Source: Spirochaetia bacterium (GTDB lineage: Bacteria > Spirochaetota > Spirochaetia > CADAEX01). From it: 60,356 nt of DNA. Position 1 is the stretch's first letter. The number at the start of each line of letters is the position of its first letter. Positions 40,232 to 53,129 of the stretch are shown piece after piece. The notes under the pieces were generated by a model. The model searched no databases. It saw only the letters and a program-made list of their open reading frames with translations, and had not been told where the DNA came from. The stretch covers positions 1-60,356 of the forward strand of contig CAXXHA010000005.1 of assembly GCA_963662265.2 (NCBI GenBank), written 5' to 3'. The translations under genes were made by a program, and so were the position numbers.

Positions 40232-41041
40232 TTAATCTGATAAAAACTTATCTTCAAAATCAGCAGGGCTTCGCTCTCCTATTTGTCCATCCCGTCTTTT
40301 TGTATTGTAAAACATTTTAATATAATTAAAAATATCTTTTCTTGCCTCCTCTCTGGTTTTATAAATTTTATTCCTGATTCTTTCTCTTTTAAGATTTGAA
40401 AAGAATGATTCAACTACAGAATTATCCCAACAATTACCTCTTCTACTCATGCTAATTTCCAAAGAGTGGGCCTCACAAAAATCCTCCCAATCCTTACTTG
40501 TAAACTGACACCCTTGATCAGAATGGATAAGAACAGACTTTGTAGGTCTTCTTCTTTTTACTGCCATAAACAAAGCATCCATAACAATAATTGCTTTCTG
40601 ATGATTCTTCATCGACCAGCCAACAACTCCTCTGTTAAATAGATCAATTACTACTGCCAGATATAACCAGCCTTCATAAGTTCGGATATATGTTATATCA
40701 GTACACCAAGCTTGATTTGGCTCAGCAACAGAAAATTCTCTATTCAAAGTATTCTTCTGGTAAATTTCTCCAGGAACCCAAGGTACATGATGCCGTTTCC
40801 GTCTGTAAGCACCTTTTATTCCAGCTACTCTCATCAAACGAGCAACCCGATTAACACCGTAGCTATAACCTGCTTCTTTTAGATCCTCATGTATATTTGG
40901 ACTTCCATATACTTGACCGCTTTCTTCCCAGTAAAAACGGATTAGTTCTGTCACTTTTTTATTTTCTATTGTTCTAGGAGATTCTGGTGTTTTTAACCAC
41001 CGATAAAATCCTGATGGATTAACTTTTAATATCCTGCACAT
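40232..41041 (-). CDS. IS3 OrfB DDE transposase
   Basis: WCTDITYI, HSDQG.QF and GNCWDNSVVESFF. Confidence 0.95.
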   Translation of the reverse strand: MCRILKVNPSGFYRWLKTPESPRTIENKKVTELIRFYWEESGQVYGSPNIHEDLKEAGYSYGVNRVARLMRVAGIKGAYRRKRHHVPWVPGEIYQKNTLNREFSVAEPNQAWCTDITYIRTYEGWLYLAVVIDLFNRGVVGWSMKNHQKAIIVMDALFMAVKRRRPTKSVLIHSDQGCQFTSKDWEDFCEAHSLEISMSRRGNCWDNSVVESFFSNLKRERIRNKIYKTREEARKDIFNYIKMFYNTKRRDGQIGERSPADFEDKFLSD

Positions 41042-41088
41042 AGGGCGAATTGGAAACGCTTTTCTGTTGTCCCGAATAAAAGCGTACT

Positions 41089-41376
41089 TTACTGGGACTC
41101 CTTCGCAAAGTACGCTGCGGCCTTTTTTAAGATATCACGCTCCATCTTAAGCTTTCTGATCTCTGCTTTTAATTCTCTGTTTTCCTTTTCTGCTTCTGTT
41201 AATTTTTTCTTTTCTCGAGACTCCCCGGATTTCCACCCGGCCTTTCTAAGCCAGTTATAAAGAGTAACGTCACTTATTCCTGTTGCTTTTGATACTTCAA
41301 GAACACTGTGTTCTTCTTCCATTATTTGCTTTAATATTTCGTCTTTAAATTCTTCTGTGTAGGGACTCTTTGGCAC
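41089..41376 (-). CDS. IS3 OrfA
   Basis: YTEEFK, HTH and ERDILKKAAAYF; A6G -1 frameshift motif at 41122-41128 (minus). Confidence 0.93.
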   Translation of the reverse strand: MPKSPYTEEFKDEILKQIMEEEHSVLEVSKATGISDVTLYNWLRKAGWKSGESREKKKLTEAEKENRELKAEIRKLKMERDILKKAAAYFAKESQ

Positions 41377-43825: not shown

Positions 43826-43854
43826 ATCATATACCCGCCAGATTTCACACGCAA
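43826..43854 (-). promoter_or_regulatory. attC-embedded sigma70-like promoter motif
   Basis: TTGCGT-N17-TATGAT. Confidence 0.65.
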
Positions 43855-43889
43855 CAATAAAAAGCTCCGACATTTTGGGTGAACGGCAG

Positions 43890-46419
43890 TGGAAATGGCA
43901 AGTCATTTTCCCCACATTTAGGAAATTAAAAAATCCCCCACCTGCAGAAAAAAATTATACCCCCTTTTTCTCCTGAATTCTATATGAATCTCCCTCAAGG
44001 GAGAAAACATGCGCATGATGTAAAAGGCCTATCAAGCATTGCTGTTGTCATGATTTTCATCACCCATCATTTCAGACCACTGATCAAAACCTTTATTTGA
44101 AGTAATTATTACTGACGATCTTTCATAGAGTTCGCTGATAAGATTAAAAAAAAGATTGGCCTCTTTTCTGTCCGATAGGCGTATAGCCTATTTCATCAAT
44201 AATTAGTAACGAAGATCTGAGAATCCTGTTTATTCTGAATGAACTTGATCTCATAGTTTTCCATTGTTTTCAACAGTTTTATTAGTGAAGTTATCCTTTC
44301 AAAACAGACAGTGTATCCGGCTTCAATTGCCTTGTACCCGAGAGCAATTGATAGATGTGTTTTTCCCCAAGGCCGGGAGGTCCAAAGAACATGATATTTT
44401 TCAGATTTATCTATCCACCTGAAAATCCTTGAGATTATTTAACTGTTCTTCCAGTTATCCCTTTTATTCTTGAAAAAATTGAATGTCCTCAAGTTCCTTA
44501 ATTACAGGAAAATGGGCACCTGTAAGATTTCTATGGAAGACGTCTTTCATTTCTGAAATGTACTTCTTCTGTAAGAAGGATGCTTAAAAAATCAAGATGA
44601 GATTATTTTCTCCTTTGTTGCTTTTTCAAGTGCCTCATCAAGATTAACAGATATTCCCTTTAAGCTTTAGACTATCAAGTATTCCTGTACAGTAATCAAA
44701 AACAGCTCATAAAGCACCTCCTAAAAGACTTACAAGTGAGGTGTAGTAACTTAAATCCCTTTTCTTTACTTCTATGTTTTTTATTCTCATGTTTTTACAG
44801 CTTTTATTCCTGTAAGAAGCTGTGGCAGAATATCCGGATAATTTTCAGTTTCACAGCTTCTTACATAAAGATAAGACTCTTCAAAATTCCTTGCAGATAG
44901 TGTTTCCGTTTTTCAATGCATAAATCTGCAGTTTTTTGCTATTAACTTATCATCAGGATTTGAGTTTATGAAAGCATAAAGCTCGCGCTGCTGATCTCTG
45001 TAATACCTGCTGTATTTTTTGTAATTTCTGATCAACATATTGTTTTCCATGAGTTACTGCTAAATCTGTTCTTTAATTTTTTGATAAACTTCATCGGGGC
45101 TTGGAATCATAATTCCTGAAATGATTATGTTTGGTTATTTTTTTTCCCCCTTTATCGGTGAGATTTTGTGCCTGGCAATCTCTTCTCCATCTATTTTGTC
45201 ATAGATAAAAAGGTCTGTATCTGTTTGGTAAAATCCAGACAGTTTTTTTTCTGAACCTGTTAGGGGACAGAGTAAAATGAAGATGAAACACTTATCAATG
45301 ATTTACTATTTTACTTCCCTTGATTCTTTATTTATGATGCTTTCCCTTCTGAAAAATAGACGGCTTTAATTTTTTTAAAATGTGGAATCTCTTTAAGCAA
45401 AGCTTCTTGAGGAATTATTCCAGTTGCCTGGCATATTTTTACCGTTAGCTCTTCTTGAAAAGCCAATTATTTAATGCCTCCTGTATTTGAATCAAAGGAT
45501 GTGAAAATGTCCTTGCTGAAAAGAAAACTGCTTTTGATGAATTTCACAAAGTTTTCGACTTTACCTTTGCTCTCAGGGTCCTGCTTTTCTGCAGACATAC
45601 ATCTTAAACCCCCTGCTCATCCTTGAAGGCTTTTAAATTCTTTTGTATACTTAATATCTCCGCTGTTTTCTTTAACAACCATGACTTTGTCCTGATCAAT
45701 CACGATTTCTTCAGGTACCCCTCCTATTATTTCAAAAGGTATCAAGTAAATGATTTATCACATCTATGGATTTAAACGGCCTCTTCTGTACTGCTGCATA
45801 CTTGAATCTGCTTACAGATAGAATGACTCCAAAGATATATACTTTCTCACCGGTTTCTATTTCAGTTTCTCCGAAATCAAGCTGTAGTTGTTTTCCATGT
45901 GGAAGTTCTTCAACCGGTGTATAGATTCTCTTGTATTCGTAATTATCTACTTCTCCTGTTTTTCTTTAAGAAAATGAGATAATTTCTCAAAGTCCCCTTT
46001 CAGTGCCGGGAAAGTTCTCCATATTTTTCTTCAAGAACATCATAGATTGATGAAGTGTATATTTTTATTGTTATTTAAATTAAAAATATTCAGTATTTCA
46101 TCTTTGAAAGGAGCAAAAATCTTTTCCTTTTCTACACTGTTTATCTGGTATTCAAGATACTCTGCTTCCGACATTTCAAAGTATTTTCTAACTGTTTTTT
46201 CTGTCTCGATTTTTTAATTCTCTGGATATTTTTCCTTTTTGAATATCCTCTATTCTTGAAAAACTCTTATTTTTTGGTACATATTCATAGTAATCATTTG
46301 AGTCATTCCTGGTAGTTTTTGTCGTGATTACATACTAAGGTTTGACTCTTTTTTTTTTCCTATAGGGTGGGGAATTTTATTTTTCCATCCTATAGGGGAT
46401 TTCATGTTTACCATTTCCA
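43890..46419 (-). mobile_element. IS21-family element (2530 bp); istA (~46288-44712) and istB (~44710-43980) heavily frameshifted
   Basis: Ends TGGAAATGG...CCATTTCCA; 6-bp target duplication CGGCAG (43884-43889 and 46420-46425); fragments LQLDFG, PESKGKVENFVKF, GKTHLSIALG and TSNKGFDQW. Confidence 0.9.
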
Positions 46420-46489
46420 CGGCAGTTATTCCCAAGCTTTTACTGCTTATGCCTGAAACCGTGGTATTCTCTGTTATGTTTAGTTCAAA

Positions 46490-47583
46490 ATCTGACATAA
46501 TTAAATTTTTTTCAAAGTACATGGAGGTACTTTGAAATCCCGATTTATATTAAGTCAAATATTTCAACAGAGTATTTTTTTCTCCAAAAAACTCAACAAC
46601 TGTGTCCAATAGCTGTTTTTTACAGCTTTTAAAATATCAATTAATTCATTCTTATCTAGCGAATAATCAATATAAAAATGATTGTATTACACCATGTCTG
46701 TAATTAATAATATCTGAAATCCTTTTTTCAATGAAAGTAATCTTAGAACCAAGTCTTTTCTTTTTTATATAGGATACTTCTTATATCTATATTTTAACCA
46801 ATCTTTATATGCTAGATTTAATTTATCAAGATTTTGAAAGACATATCTAGATGCGATAAAGTCTTCAATAGTTTTCTGATCTCTACTAATTTCAAGTAAT
46901 TCTTGAAAATCTAATTTTTGTTTATAATTTTTTCGATATTCAAGCGCGTTTTTTATCATATTTAATTAAAACTTTAAAAGTCTCCTGAAAGAAATTTTCG
47001 AACATGGATACAGCAAAAGGAAACTAATCCATTATAGAGAACTCTAGAAGGATCATTTCTTTTCATCCATTTCTAAAGTATCATCAAATTTATCGCCAGT
47101 TGGATTTCCATATTGTGCATAATCACCAGGAATTGCTATTTCAAGTTTAGACATATTTTGTGAAATATTTTCATATATCAATGCAATTCCTCTACTTATT
47201 GGTGTTGATTTATCTTTCCATAGAGGAGCATAACGATTGGTTCCATAATCCCCTGTGATTTTTCCCCCATACACATTTACGTGCTGAACGCAAAACGTGA
47301 TTAAGCATTTCTACATCATAATAACTTGCATGATACAGGTTTTCTAACATGAAGTCCCCAACGGCAAGTTGAAAAAAACAATATCGTCATCTTTAAGAGG
47401 GTAGATATCTGCCGATACTCCATCAAATGACTTAAAATCCTCTGTTTCAAACCATGCATAATTTAAAGTTTCTTCTGGCCAATCCCAAAGATGATTGCAT
47501 TTATGAAAATTGAGATTTTCAAGCAACTCTTTTAAATCAGATTTGGTTGCTCTTTCTGGATATAAAGTAAGATCTCTTCCCAT
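46490..47583 (-). pseudogene. Fragmented hypothetical cassette gene(s)
   Basis: Consecutive ORF pieces 47344-47583, 47053-47274 and 46765-46959 within one cassette; 3' limit uncertain. Confidence 0.5.
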
Positions 47584-47648
47584 ATTTCCTTCTTCTTCCG
47601 AGCCAAGGATGGCGAGGTTTGATTACCCTTATTTAGATTTTGAATTGA

Positions 47649-47812
47649 ACATAACGTTTCAGAAATATATGAAGATGCCAGACGATCTCCATATGAAATA
47701 ATCATATACCTGCTTATATATCATCGCAACACAAAAAGTTCTGGCATTTTGGGAAAGTCTGTCTACATTCATTTTTACTACACCAGACTTGATCATATAT
47801 TTCTTGTTACAA
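47649..47812 (-). repeat. Long attC-like site, family A (164 bp)
   Basis: Plus: TAAC-gtttc-agaaatatatga...tcatatatttct-t-GTTA with two internal stems. Confidence 0.9.
47701..47729 (-). promoter_or_regulatory. attC-embedded sigma70-like promoter motif
   Basis: TTGCGA-N17-TATGAT. Confidence 0.65.
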
Positions 47813-47910
47813 GCAGTATTCTCGCAATACCCAAGCCCGTACAGCGGAGCTAGGGCTGGACGTTTATACCATATATAATCTTCTATATCTGTTATAAAAA
47901 AGACATTACT

Positions 47911-48540
47911 TTATGGTAAGAAAGTGAAATATTTCTCCGGAATAGATTTACTATCATAAATCACTCTTGGATTATTTATTTTATTCGTAATAATATCTTC
48001 AATAAATATGATATAAGCTTTTGGAAATATCTTTTCAAATGATTCTGGAAGTTCATTTAATTTATTGTGCCATAAAAGAATAAACTCAATGTCTGTATTT
48101 AGTCCAATTATATTCTCAAAACTCATTAAATTTGAATTTGTGAGTGAGAAGTGTTTCAGTTTTTTATTAGCTGTTAAATCTAATTTCTTAAATAAAAAAT
48201 CATCTCCTTCAATCCAAAGAGACTTTAATTCTGGGAGTAATTTTAAAAAAGAATAATTACTAATTCTTGTAGTAAAGAAATCAAGTCTTTCTAAATTCTT
48301 AAAGTCAGTTAGGAAAGAATAATCGTTGATGTTATTTATCATACTAAAATCAATATGAGTAACTTTATCTATATTCTCTGGAAGTATTTTTATTATTCCT
48401 GTTTTTGAAAATGCTATTTTTCCATCTTTTATAGGTAGAGAAATAGTTTCATTATTATAAGTAATATATTTTATCGAATTTTGTGAGTAAGCTGCAGTCG
48501 AGGTTAATAAAATTGTAATAATTAAAAACACTTTTTTCAT
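47911..48540 (-). CDS. Secreted leucine-rich-repeat protein (cassette)
   Basis: Signal peptide and LxxLxLxxN-type repeats. Confidence 0.75.
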   Translation of the reverse strand: MKKVFLIITILLTSTAAYSQNSIKYITYNNETISLPIKDGKIAFSKTGIIKILPENIDKVTHIDFSMINNINDYSFLTDFKNLERLDFFTTRISNYSFLKLLPELKSLWIEGDDFLFKKLDLTANKKLKHFSLTNSNLMSFENIIGLNTDIEFILLWHNKLNELPESFEKIFPKAYIIFIEDIITNKINNPRVIYDSKSIPEKYFTFLP

Positions 48541-48631
48541 AAGTTAATCCTATTCGTAGCATAATATTATTATTTCATTTCTTCGCCCGTCGGCCGGAGG
48601 TCCGGGCGATCTTCTCTTGCGAGAAAATTGC

Positions 48632-48794
48632 TTGTAACGTTTCAGAAATATATGAAGTTGCCAGGCCGATACATTTAAAATAATCATACACCTGCTGATA
48701 ATACTCCGCAACATAAAACATTCTGGCAATTTGGATGAAGGCTGTTTGCTTTCTTTTTTACTCTCCAGCCTGAATCATATATTTCTTGTTAGCA
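48632..48794 (-). repeat. Long attC-like site, family A (163 bp)
   Basis: Same outer stem and architecture as 47649-47812. Confidence 0.9.
48683..48711 (-). promoter_or_regulatory. attC-embedded sigma70-like promoter motif
   Basis: TTGCGG-N17-TATGAT. Confidence 0.65.
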
Positions 48795-48859
48795 GCAGTT
48801 CGCCCCTCTCTTATCCGGTTCTTTGATATTTCTAAAAATATACAGTAAAAAATATATAA

Positions 48860-49402
48860 TCATATCCTCCCTAATTGTGAATGATACTGATAATAATATT
48901 CATAAAAATCATTTTTACTAATTTCTAATATTTTTTTCCGCATACTTTCTGGATATTTTTCTAGATCCAATCTACCTTCTTCCGTAAAAATTTCAGGATG
49001 TTTGAGCATCTGATATAATGTAAATGCTGCCATAGCTATATTCTGTTCTTCATTAAGCAGTCTTAAACCATAACAAGTAAACATAATATACTTTTCATTA
49101 ACTGATGGATCAAATTCCATATTATCTTGAGAATCTTTGTCAGCATGTTTTAAAAAATTGTATGATTCTTTCAATTTATTAATCCACAATTTTCTATATT
49201 CATCTTTTATTAATAATGAATCATATAATAAATCTCTGCCTTTTTGCTTTGTATTAATATCGTGTACTATTTGGTATGCTGAACAAGTTAGTGTATGAAT
49301 TGCAATCGGATCATCATCCTGAAACCATAGTTTAATAGCTATAGTTATTTGTCTTTTTGCAGCTTCTATTTTAGAAATGTTTATTTTTTCCATTTTTTCC
49401 AC
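48860..49402 (-). CDS. Hypothetical helical protein with HEPN-like motif (cassette)
   Basis: SKIEAAKRQI..AI.LWF...IAIHTL...A and YNFLKHAD. Confidence 0.55.
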   Translation of the reverse strand: MEKMEKINISKIEAAKRQITIAIKLWFQDDDPIAIHTLTCSAYQIVHDINTKQKGRDLLYDSLLIKDEYRKLWINKLKESYNFLKHADKDSQDNMEFDPSVNEKYIMFTCYGLRLLNEEQNIAMAAFTLYQMLKHPEIFTEEGRLDLEKYPESMRKKILEISKNDFYEYYYQYHSQLGRI

Positions 49403-49981
49403 TTCATTTTATTTAAATCTTTCAAAAATAATTGATAATCATTTATAACACTTTCAATATGTTCATAAAATTCATTTAAAACATGTTCACCATGATCTAG
49501 TTTTTTAATTACTTCGACGGGAATGCTTTTTTGTTCCCATCTATTCCATAGTTCAATAAAATTTGTTAATTCTATATACCAGTTTCTGGTTTCTGATAAA
49601 GCTAAACCCATTTTTTCTTTAATTATTTTTTGCATCTCTCGATATTGTGGTAATAAATCATCTGTTAATTGTTTATTATCATAATTTATTATTTTATCAA
49701 ATGGTTCAAAATATTCTTCATGATCAAAAAATGGTTTTACTATGTTTTTCGCATATTTCTTTCCAAGAAATATCAGCAGCTTTACTAATTTTTAAACGTA
49801 ATTCTGATTTTGCTTGTATATCTTTTCTCAATCCTAATAATGGTGAATATAATTCATTTATTTGTTTTTCATAAAAGTCAATTTTTTTTTGAAATACAGC
49901 TTGTCGTACTCCAAAGAAAACTCCAAAAAGACCAGCTAAAAAAGTAAACAATGGAGGAATCAATATTTTAATTATTTCCAT
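49381..49981 (-). pseudogene. Single-TM-anchored hypothetical cassette protein, frameshift near 49725
   Basis: ORFs 49724-49981 and 49381-49635 join across an A6 run. Confidence 0.6.
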
Positions 49982-50043
49982 ATTTTTAACCTCTTATATC
50001 TTATTTCTACTTGATCAGGAGAATATTTCTTGGGGCGAATTGA

Positions 50044-50207
50044 TGCTAACGTTTCAGAAATATATGAAGTTGCCAGACCGCTTCACATATAATAATCATA
50101 CACCTGCTGAAAATACTCAGCAACAGAAAACATTCTGGCAATTTGGATAAAAACTGTTTACTTCCAATTATGCTTCTCCAGTTTTTATCATATATTTCTT
50201 GTTATAT
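50044..50207 (-). repeat. Long attC-like site, family A (164 bp)
   Basis: Same outer stem; inner stems aagttgccaga/tctggcaattt and gataaaaactg/cagtttttatc. Confidence 0.9.
50095..50123 (-). promoter_or_regulatory. attC-embedded sigma70-like promoter motif
   Basis: TTGCTG-N17-TATGAT. Confidence 0.65.
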
Positions 50208-50214
50208 GTTTTTT

Positions 50215-50736
50215 TTATTGGAGTGGCCACGGAAAGATACCCCTTGTAAATGATTTTTGTATTAATTCAATTCCTGAAATAAGTTTTTCTCTGTCTTTTC
50301 CAGATCCATGATATCCAATAATTCTTAGAACATGTTCATCATCAAGTTTGAGATAACATGCTATTATTTCACTCCACATATAAAAATATATATTTATTGT
50401 TTCTAAATCATCTATGATTGTCTTCTTTAATGTATAATCATCAATGTCTGAAAAGCGTTTAATGATAAATGTTTCAAGATTATCCTCAGTCATATTTAAT
50501 ATTGTAAAAGATACTTTTGCTGAATTTGGATTTTGACCACCTTTATCAATATTTATAGCTGGATCAGGTCTGAATAATTGGATAAATTCTGATTTAAAAT
50601 CTTCTCGTGAATTTAGATTCCAATCGTCATAATAGTTGAATGAAAAATAATTATTATAATTATATTGAATGATTTCTTGAGAAAAAACTGAAACAACAAA
50701 TAGTAAATGGAAAATGATAAAAACTTTTACTTTCAT
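50215..50736 (-). CDS. Secreted hypothetical protein (cassette)
   Basis: Signal peptide and GGAG RBS; fills the cassette. Confidence 0.75.
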   Translation of the reverse strand: MKVKVFIIFHLLFVVSVFSQEIIQYNYNNYFSFNYYDDWNLNSREDFKSEFIQLFRPDPAINIDKGGQNPNSAKVSFTILNMTEDNLETFIIKRFSDIDDYTLKKTIIDDLETINIYFYMWSEIIACYLKLDDEHVLRIIGYHGSGKDREKLISGIELIQKSFTRGIFPWPLQ

Positions 50737-50763
50737 AAATTATTATCTCCAATAAAAAATTAC

Positions 50764-50933
50764 ATATAACGTTCTGAGAATACCCGAAGATGTCGGGTCT
50801 TCCACGTATTAAAATAATCATACAACCACCAGTTTCCACCTGCAACATAAAAAGGCCCGACATTTTGGGTGAAAGGCAGTTAAGCCCCAAAATTTTTACT
50901 GCTTATGCCTGAACCGGGTATTCTCTGTTATCG
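50764..50933 (-). repeat. Long attC-like site, family B (170 bp)
   Basis: Plus: TAAC-gttct-gagaatacccg...cgggtattctc-t-GTTA; inner stems gatgtcgggtctt/aaggcccgacatt and aggcagttaagc/gcttatgcct. Confidence 0.9.
50817..50845 (-). promoter_or_regulatory. attC-embedded sigma70-like promoter motif
   Basis: TTGCAG-N17-TATGAT. Confidence 0.65.
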
Positions 50934-52322: not shown

Positions 52323-52350
52323 ATTTACGATAACTATAATTATATGCACT
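52323..52350 (-). other. Array entry site: attI candidate with dif-like 11-6-11 organisation
   Basis: Minus AGTGCATATAA-TTATAG-TTATCGTAAAT; contains the G|TT of the first cassette; no attC hairpin upstream. Confidence 0.7.
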
Positions 52351-52625
52351 CATCTATTTTTACTCTCTAGGAAATTTTCCTAAAAACTGTACAACTTCTC
52401 TCCTTTACTAGATATCCGGCTGCTGTATAACCCTCATACTCAGCTCAAAAAGCTGTCACTATTGTTCTACTGAAACTGTCTTAACAGTTTCCATGAGTCT
52501 CTAAATCATTATTTCGTGTATTTGTTCTTAATTTTAAAAGTTATATGCATGATCCATTACTATTCTGAAGGAATTATACTGAAAATAATATTTCTCCGAT
52601 AATTTCCGGAAGATTTTACCTGGTC

Positions 52626-53129
52626 CTACACAGCAAGCTTTTCCCACTCTTCCCGTGGAAGTACTTTTTCATCGCTGTTGTAGTCTGTAAACAGTATGCC
52701 GTACAGGTGGTCTATCTCGTGTTGAAAAAGCTCTGACATGTCATCATTGAACACCTTTTTAATCTTGTTTCCCTTCTGGTCAAGGTATTCAACTTTTATT
52801 GACCTGTGCCTGGTTATGTACTTGAAAAATGCGACTTCTGCGCTGAAGCAGCTGTCCCATACCTCAAATGTGTCATCACTCTTTTCAATAATTACCGGGT
52901 TAATCATTACAATTGTTTCATCCCCTCTCTCCATGTAGACAGCTTTTTTAAGCACACCTATCTGGGGAGCTGCAATTGCCCTTCCTATTTTGTATTTTTT
53001 CCGGCAGTAATGGAGTGTGTCTGAAAGGTCTTTTATAAGTGAATCAACATCATCATAGAAGAAATTAATATCCTTGCTTTTCTCTTTGAGAAGCGGATTC
53101 TCAATTGTTAATACATCTTTAATAGCCAT
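52626..53129 (-). CDS. def: Peptide deformylase (variant motifs)
   Basis: GRAIAAPQIG, DSCFS (canonical EGCLS) and QHEIDHLYG. Confidence 0.85.
   Translation of the reverse strand: MAIKDVLTIENPLLKEKSKDINFFYDDVDSLIKDLSDTLHYCRKKYKIGRAIAAPQIGVLKKAVYMERGDETIVMINPVIIEKSDDTFEVWDSCFSAEVAFFKYITRHRSIKVEYLDQKGNKIKKVFNDDMSELFQHEIDHLYGILFTDYNSDEKVLPREEWEKLAV

Follow-up and report, generated by a model that had tools for sequence, protein, structure and literature searches.

Gene cassettes of the textbook integron are promoterless, are read from one platform promoter, and carry attC sites that serve recombination only, the exceptions being promoters in cassette bodies or in gene-less cassettes. An array of cassettes on a 60,356-nucleotide (nt) contig of a Spirochaetia bacterium (contig CAXXHA010000005.1 of assembly GCA_963662265.2) raises the question of whether an attC site may itself hold the promoter of the cassette that follows it. 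This contig, here called the window, is the entire contig C5 of a 3.77-Mb, 41-contig genome (G000). A first-pass annotation had reported that all five of its long attC-like sites contain the minus-strand pattern TTGCNN-N17-TATGAT, preceded by a T-tract and placed in the loop of one branch hairpin, with hexamers and spacing common to two site families and a divergent spacer. The pattern was found exactly five times in the window, always on the minus strand (TTGCAG at 50817-50845, TTGCTG at 50095-50123, TTGCGG at 48683-48711, TTGCGA at 47701-47729, and TTGCGT at 43826-43854, each followed after 17 nt by TATGAT). In 100 dinucleotide-preserving shuffles the mean was 0.35 and the largest count 2, and none reached five. 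Each match sits inside a long attC-like site which follows one open reading frame (ORF) and precedes the next, and at all five a T-tract lies upstream of the -35-like hexamer. Across the whole genome the exact pattern has 22 matches, of which 7 fall in long attC-like sites, the five in the window and two on contig C10; an eighth long site, also on C10, has TAAGAT as its -10-like hexamer.

The five sites are 163 to 170 nt long, read xTAACA(G/A)...AACGTTAx on the minus strand, and have the inverted core sites R'' (..AAC) and R' (GTT..) at their ends. Candidate sites were located with a simple attC scanner, whose output was noisy and symmetric, and were then read one by one. The five fall into two families, F1 (the sites at 50.8 and 43.8 kb) and F2 (those at 50.1, 48.7, and 47.7 kb), which in this genome occur on contigs C5 and C10 only. 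The first site (F1, 50933-50764, minus strand, 170 nt) extends from R'' CGATAAC at 50933-50927 to R' GTTATAT at 50770-50764 and folds as a three-way junction with the motif in the branch-2 loop; if the motif is a promoter, transcription would start near 50811-50809, and the next ORF starts at 50736. The three F2 sites, on the same strand, occupy 50207-50044 (164 nt, next ORF from 49981), 48794-48632 (163 nt, followed by an LRR-like ORF of 209 amino acids from 48540), and 47812-47649 (164 nt, next ORF from 47583). The fifth site, of family F1 and again on the minus strand, is parted by an insertion into a 5' portion comprising R'' and branch 1 (46479-46421) and a 3' portion comprising the motif and R' GTTATCG at 43779-43773 (43890-43773); downstream of it is a two-gene, ParE-like cassette (43617-42912, minus strand).

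The consensus fold (RNAalifold) is a three-way junction made of the outer R/L stem, branch 1, and branch 2, with 28 consensus pairs, 14 of them showing compensatory changes, and the motif lies in the terminal loop of branch 2. When the bottom strand was folded as DNA, the same three-way shape was obtained (z of -3.5 and -3.0). Asymmetric unpaired bases are visible near R'. In an alignment of the genome's eight long sites, the invariant columns cluster at the T-tract together with TGTTGC, at G.T.TA.GATTA.T, in the two arms of one stem, and at the R' core. The F1 and F2 alignment shows common hexamers and spacing with a divergent spacer and covarying stems, so that the earlier description of the motif proved correct in every particular.

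Several features identify these sites as cassette boundaries. Unrelated ORFs, all in the same sense, lie between them, as judged from ORF calls and Pfam. The first cassette (52334-50896, minus strand), which contains a HAD-like ORF at 52216-51041, begins exactly at GTTATCG (52334) and shares 99.7% identity across 1,439 nt with one cassette of a related genome, G001; the identity starts exactly at G|TT. Upstream of this cassette is an F1 attC in G001 and, in the window, unrelated DNA beside a gene that by eye is deformylase-like. Because the shared cassette begins at G|TT and has another upstream neighbor, the sites are real cassette junctions, a check that covers this one cassette. In four cassettes examined by eye, the ~20 nt that open the cassette downstream of G|TT and the ~20 nt that lead up to its own R'' are reverse complements of each other (for example, 50770-50749 and 50222-50201; 50050-50032 and 48814-48788; 48638-48614 and 47833-47806). 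This complementarity extends the R-box pairing to ~20 bp, which is only possible in the excised circular form. With R'' and R' cores, covarying stems, a three-way fold, and a cassette boundary, the long sites are of attC type. No match to the integron integrase (TIGR02249) was found above cutoff in the window, the sole match of the genome being on contig C8, and the window array is a cluster of attC-type sites without an integrase, not part of a complete integron.

To follow the motif in relatives while avoiding circularity, we used a probe consisting of the two branch-2 stem arms only, with 45 to 75 free bases between them, so that no loop base entered the search. In 61 genomes (G000 and 60 relatives) the probe found eight sites in G000, five and six in the two other genomes of the genus, and one in a genome of another family, and a backwards control probe gave no match in the same 61 genomes. 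In 185,579 species genomes it matched 86 stretches, most of them chance matches in unrelated phyla, which were kept as a control; the attC-like sites beyond G001 and G002 came from eight metagenome-assembled genome (MAG) records, six of them bearing a spirochaete label and the other two labelled uncultured bacterium and Atribacterota. A metagenome scan, in which ACGT was demanded 11 to 16 nt after the stem, contributed 44 stretches. After de-duplication there were 135 stem-loop-stem sequences, 66 of which had an R'-like ACGT. Three of these (L048, L134, and L157) were dropped by eye as coding-like chance matches and moved to the controls, giving 63 attC-like sites, from the three genus genomes, other Spirochaetia MAGs, and metagenomes, and 72 controls. 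The commonest family in the metagenomes, F3, which also occurs in other MAGs, has TTGTAG, TTGAAG, or TTGCAG and TAGAAT or TAAAAT as its hexamers and a different spacer; it keeps the T-tract, the 17-nt spacing, and the distance to the stem seen in F1 and F2.

In its general form, TTGNNN-17-TANNNT, the motif was present in the forward direction in 45 of the 63 attC-like sites and in 2 of the 72 controls, and shuffled loops gave a mean of 3.07 and a maximum of 9 of 63. In the reverse direction it was absent from both sets (0/63 and 0/72). Ten further sites of the 63 have the motif at the same place and spacing with one key mismatch, and a TAnnnT box ending 16 to 20 nt before the 3' arm was found in 56 of 63, versus a shuffled mean of 14.6. 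The 17-nt spacing, which the first-pass annotation had proposed to look for in homologs, was retained in all 19 sites of the three genus genomes, 15 with exact hexamers and 4 with one change (TAAGAT, TATCAT, CATGAT, or TTACAG). The loop is 56 to 61 nt long, and its insertions and deletions lie 5' of the -35-like hexamer (9 to 12 nt from the arm) or 3' of the -10-like hexamer (18 to 20 nt), never in the spacer.

Parsimony changes per column were counted on a tree of 54 alignable sites, which by selection have at most one key mismatch; of the 58 loops of up to 62 nt, 4 could not be aligned and were excluded. The mean was 1.67 for the -35 TTG together with positions T1, A2, and T6 of the -10, versus 7.4 for the other hexamer positions, 8.76 for the spacer, and 7.2 and 9.3 for the flanks; only 3 of 100,000 random six-column sets were as low. 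The positions that drift, 4 to 6 of the -35 and 3 to 4 of the -10, are those that matter least in σ70 promoters. The hexamers drift only within the σ70 envelope, as TTGnnn with TATGAT, TAGAAT, or TAAAAT. Their separation lies within the 17 ± 1 nt of σ70-type promoters, and the key bases and the spacing appear to be under purifying selection in homologs, among sites that are kin and were chosen by mismatch.

We consider it rather probable, though with some reserve, that these loops are σ70-type promoters embedded in attC and aimed at the downstream cassette. In this superfamily of uncultured Spirochaetia, a short attC with a small second hairpin would have acquired the large terminal loop, ordered on the cassette-sense strand as T-tract, -35-like TTGnnn, spacer, -10-like TAnnAT, ~18 to 20 nt, and 3' stem arm. 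In duplex DNA the loop would act as a promoter of moderate strength, with a start inside attC ~6 to 8 nt past the -10, from which transcription would proceed through L' and R', over the crossover point, and into the downstream cassette. Since the attC moves as part of the cassette upstream, every cassette of this kind would supply a promoter to whatever comes next, which would permit expression in arrays that have no platform promoter. The transcript would hold only the 3' halves of the attC stems. Gating of the promoter by hairpin extrusion, as raised in the first-pass annotation, is speculation. A related scheme, in which a portable promoter module colonised the attC loop and the promoter and the recombination site exclude each other physically, coupling expression and shuffling at each site, strikes us as unlikely. 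In that scheme a duplex attC would have its promoter on and would drive the downstream cassette, an extruded or single-stranded attC would have both hexamers unpaired and its promoter off, and transcription from within the site would change how often it folds. Cassettes would then stay expressible in the absence of a platform promoter, as when they have been inserted at non-att sites of the genome.

The arrangement of genes agrees with an embedded promoter. The distance in the window from R' to the following start codon is 34 to about 160 nt, and each ORF that follows a site runs in the same sense. Where a motif site had 300 nt or more of flanking sequence, a forward ORF of at least 50 amino acids began no more than 200 nt after R' in 34 of 38 cases. 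A promoter would fit this result, which does not discriminate, however, because integron arrays have this layout in any case. The predicted leaders, from putative start to start codon, are not unusually structured (z of -1.0 to +0.2), which speaks neither for nor against.

The first-pass annotation had further proposed that the motif explains the extra length of the sites. The array on contig C10 contains sites of 82 nt (C10:172678-172759) and 84 nt with the same outer and branch-2 stems as the long sites and a loop of 4 nt, as well as a 97-nt site with an F2 outer stem and no large loop. Within this superfamily, the long form therefore reads as the short form plus a ~55-nt loop, which is the motif-bearing segment, and there the proposal holds. 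Beyond the superfamily it fails. The genome's canonical integron (contig C8:61746-77046, comprising locus L010 and its upstream region) has an integrase of 406 amino acids (TIGR02249, 382.6 bits) and, diverging from it, an array of 17 or more attC sites that belong to one other family, in size classes of 72 to 76, 106 to 112, 119 to 136, and 191 to 196 nt. Sites of the longest class form a large AT-rich hairpin in which no promoter-like motif is present, and because six C8 sites of 191 to 196 nt lack the motif, length alone does not imply a promoter. The companion claim, that each site transcribes its neighbor and so makes expression largely independent of position, is supported insofar as the conservation fits a promoter but was overstated, since the arrays also contain short sites that have no promoter, and the expression of some cassettes would still depend on position. 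In the window itself there is one short attC-like site (42030-41932, minus strand, 99 nt), which lacks the motif and has an outer stem resembling that of the C8 family, and one F2 remnant (26436-26352, minus strand), which is cut off before the motif region.

A number of results weigh against an embedded promoter. A generic promoter scan (at least 4/6 per hexamer and 9/12 in total) was passed by only one of the five window sites, that at 47.7 kb; the -35-like hexamers match the σ70 consensus at 3 to 4 of 6 positions and the -10-like hexamers at 5 of 6. The same scan found 68 promoter-like sites in the AT-rich region from 41.5 to 53.3 kb, where 67.2 were expected. With a weight matrix of Escherichia coli frequencies, which may differ from the σ70 preferences of this organism, only 27 of 63 loops scored above the 95th percentile of shuffles in the forward direction (0/63 in reverse). 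The predicted promoter is accordingly argued for by conservation and not by match strength. Conservation also extends to columns outside the hexamers, namely TTGTT in the spacer of F3, a GG ahead of the -10, and two bases that follow the -10, and therefore some other constraint acts as well. Eight of the 63 relatives have other loops without a clear motif; by eye, two of these (L052 and L158) contain a TG-extended -10-like box and the rest nothing clear. The motif is also absent from the 17 C8 attC sites, none of which scored above the shuffle threshold in the forward direction, and two mid-size C8 sites have an F3-like spacer but hexamers that are not promoter-like (TTTCAG and AAGAAG). Finally, the sites are related by descent, so that the counts overstate their independence.

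The conserved columns beyond the hexamers would suit a loop that is bound by some other factor acting on the recombination site, such as a Xer-like recombinase or a host protein on the folded single strand, in which case the likeness to σ70 hexamers would be coincidental. The loop would be single stranded in the recombination-competent fold, and the tyrosine recombinase found beside several of these arrays, lacking the integrase-specific insertion, might need accessory contacts. However, the positions fixed across families (TTG and T1, A2, A5, and T6) are those most relevant to σ70 while others drift, and the fixed spacing, the upstream T-tract, and the single orientation toward the next ORF fit a promoter. 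Short relatives in the same arrays do without the loop, indicating that it is not needed for attC as such, and we regard a binding site of this kind as doubtful. It is somewhat harder still to see the loop as functionless sequence inherited in a recently expanded repeat family, with a promoter likeness due to AT-rich chance. Generic promoter-like matches are indeed as frequent here as in shuffles, the sites are homologous and many are 80 to 90% identical, and the homologous-looking loop of the two C8 sites has no such hexamers. Yet, within these loops, divergence is 4 to 5 times greater in the spacer and flanks than at the key positions, insertions and deletions spare the spacer only, the motif faces forward in every one of its 45 occurrences among the 63 sites, and families with different hexamers stay within the σ70 envelope.

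It is also conceivable, if quite improbable, that the promoter is real and was selected for another role, either to send transcription over the crossover and thereby modulate attC folding or excision, or to read the cassette's own gene in the excised circle. A promoter inside the site would read through L' and R', and the cassette-end pairing makes sense only in a circle, which suggests that the circle is under selection. Against this, the forward ORF that follows in 34 of 38 cases has its own ribosome-binding region, and transcription of the downstream cassette is the simpler reading. Other candidates for the loop were rejected. A conserved small ORF running through it is not supported, since by eye an ATG precedes the -35 in F1 and none does in F2. 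As for an intrinsic terminator ending in the T-tract, no G+C-rich hairpin lies directly before it, and none of nine terminator-like sites listed by a scan falls at a T-tract. An IHF-like site fails at one defining base of the consensus.

None of the arrays with long sites has a canonical integron integrase beside it. The Xer-like tyrosine recombinase adjoins F1/F2 long-site arrays on contig C10 (162743-163603) and in G001 (C1:3280492-3281280), G002 (C1:3240131-3241145), and G020 (C10:186301-187360). It matches NF040815 with 205 to 223 bits; this Xer/integron-integrase model is its best NCBIfam model, and the integrase-specific insertion is lacking. The gene is codirectional with the cassettes in G002 and G020 and divergent in G000 and G001, and the copies in G000 and G001 are shorter, each with a stop inside the match. 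A stretch of 20 nt across the first crossover, AATTATAGTTATCGTAAATG, is identical between the window (52334-52353) and the region beside the C10 recombinase (C10:163637-163656), and may represent the core of an attI-like site. In the window, a perfect TATAAT is located directly upstream of the first crossover. The start of the array (52335-52640) was considered as an attI and rejected, having only 20 nt in common with the C10 recombinase flank, which is too little. No clean empty site was obtained from array-flank synteny in G001 and G002.

The insertion within the fifth site (43891-46420, minus strand) is an insertion sequence of about 2.5 kb with inverted ends GTGGAAATGG/CCATTTCCAC and broken frames, which we take to be IstB-like or IS21-type from a Walker-A stretch recognized by eye rather than by a library scan. 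An apparent empty site across it (joints 43887/8 to 46457) was rejected, as there are 31 to 33 other letters at the joints and the simplest explanation is other attC copies. Contigs of sequencing run X1 differ from the window by 56 single-base gaps over 43980-46408 and by 16 over 46395-47673, with 0 substitutions in both. Because the differences are gaps only, assembly indels rather than true pseudogenes may account for the broken frames in the insertion sequence and in the 46.5- to 47.6-kb cassette. The runs compared, 11 listed and none of RNA, provided DNA contigs only; these contigs break at attC sites, and one of the cassettes was seen again in runs X4 and X5. The array region ends at a two-ORF transposase (40232-41376, minus strand), whose second ORF (40232-41041) has rve and HTH_21 domains and which we read as IS3-type from a scan of that ORF alone. 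The C10 array holds a pair of ORFs similar in size to this transposase (L009, 14651-15795).

Other repeated elements were observed near the cassette ends. A conserved G+C-rich hairpin with the core CCCGGACCTCCGGCCG in a CGCCCG/CGGGCG stem is found ~20 to 30 nt past R', where several unrelated cassettes have their 5' start. Copies lie on the minus strand of the window at 52310-52280, 48612-48583, and 43755-43725, on C10 near 165229, and in large number in G001 and G002 (L013, L018, L024, L029, and L094). It would fall in the leader of any transcript started at the attC motif, and contig depth peaks there in other runs. The element had no Rfam match; its loop shows ACCTCC, which resembles an anti-Shine-Dalgarno sequence. 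Immediately upstream of the R'' of two cassettes there is a similar element of a second copy type (GCCC..CTCCG..CGGGC; 50985-50957 and 47868-47840 on the minus strand). Several cassettes in different genomes have, a short distance ahead of R'', an AT-rich perfect hairpin with a GTAC core (AAAGTAC..TCC.TGTACTTT); copies are present at about 46545-46515 on the minus strand of the window and upstream of the L096 and L052 sites. In a search of the whole window, Rfam gave no family at gathering score, and at an E value of up to 1 the region from 41.5 to 53.3 kb had three weak, implausible matches.

Long attC sites with branched (three-way) terminal structures, beyond the classical 60 to 140 nt, are known, such as the Vibrio cholerae repeats. 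The sites described here likewise exceed the classical range and fold into branches past the R and L boxes; they differ in a branch loop of 56 to 61 nt that is conserved in sequence and not in pairing, and we know of no conserved promoter in the loops of V. cholerae-type long attC sites. In annotation, attC finders tuned to 60 to 140 nt may miss sites of this length. The Correia elements of Neisseria, small inverted repeats with built-in -35 and -10 boxes, can activate an adjacent gene and resemble the present sites as repeated inverted-repeat elements with built-in promoter boxes, but they are transposon-like repeats, not integron recombination sites.

With respect to integron promoters, Pc is described, in the passages of the review that concern it, as one σ70-type promoter per platform, located in intI or attI, and the class 2 promoter Pc2A lies inside attI2 (PMC8876359). 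The predicted promoter resembles Pc as a σ70-type promoter for otherwise promoterless cassettes, and resembles Pc2A in lying inside a recombination site (PMC8876359). It differs from Pc as portrayed there, since the motif is in the cassette-borne attC, is repeated along the array, and moves with the cassettes, and the window has no intI. Cassette-borne promoters are also listed in that review, for cmlA, qacE/qacI, qnrVC1, toxin-antitoxin cassettes, and a V. rotiferianus array, and make expression independent of the distance from Pc (PMC8876359). The site-borne motif would share this property; those promoters, as far as the account goes, lie in the 5' untranslated region (UTR) or body of the expressed cassette, whereas the motif belongs to the attC carried by the preceding cassette and is a conserved part of an attC family. 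Nor does it lie outside attC, as an internal promoter or an ORF-less promoter cassette would have it, being placed between R'' and R'. Gene-less or ORF-less promoter cassettes are described in the relevant portions of reports on Treponema (PMC6557892) and the Vibrionaceae (PMC11014356), and in the latter, starts were mapped within the attC of one cassette (F2 in that report's naming), a single case for which possible spurious transcription was discussed. Such cassettes likewise place promoters within arrays where they can drive downstream cassettes (PMC6557892, PMC11014356). In those descriptions the promoter is the content of a dedicated cassette, in contrast to a conserved attC module of ordinary ORF-bearing cassettes across species. 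Among the full-text papers searched, none was found to describe an attC family with a conserved promoter module.

If the prediction is true, these Spirochaetia would have a different integron design, in which the promoter is built into the recombination site and each such cassette donates a promoter to the one downstream. The transcript would begin with a 5' UTR lacking the complete attC hairpin, a structure reported to hinder translation, and the short relatives, in which a 4-nt loop closes the same stems, are natural controls for the effect of the loop. Arrays that have no integrase or platform promoter, like the one in the window, would stay expressed.

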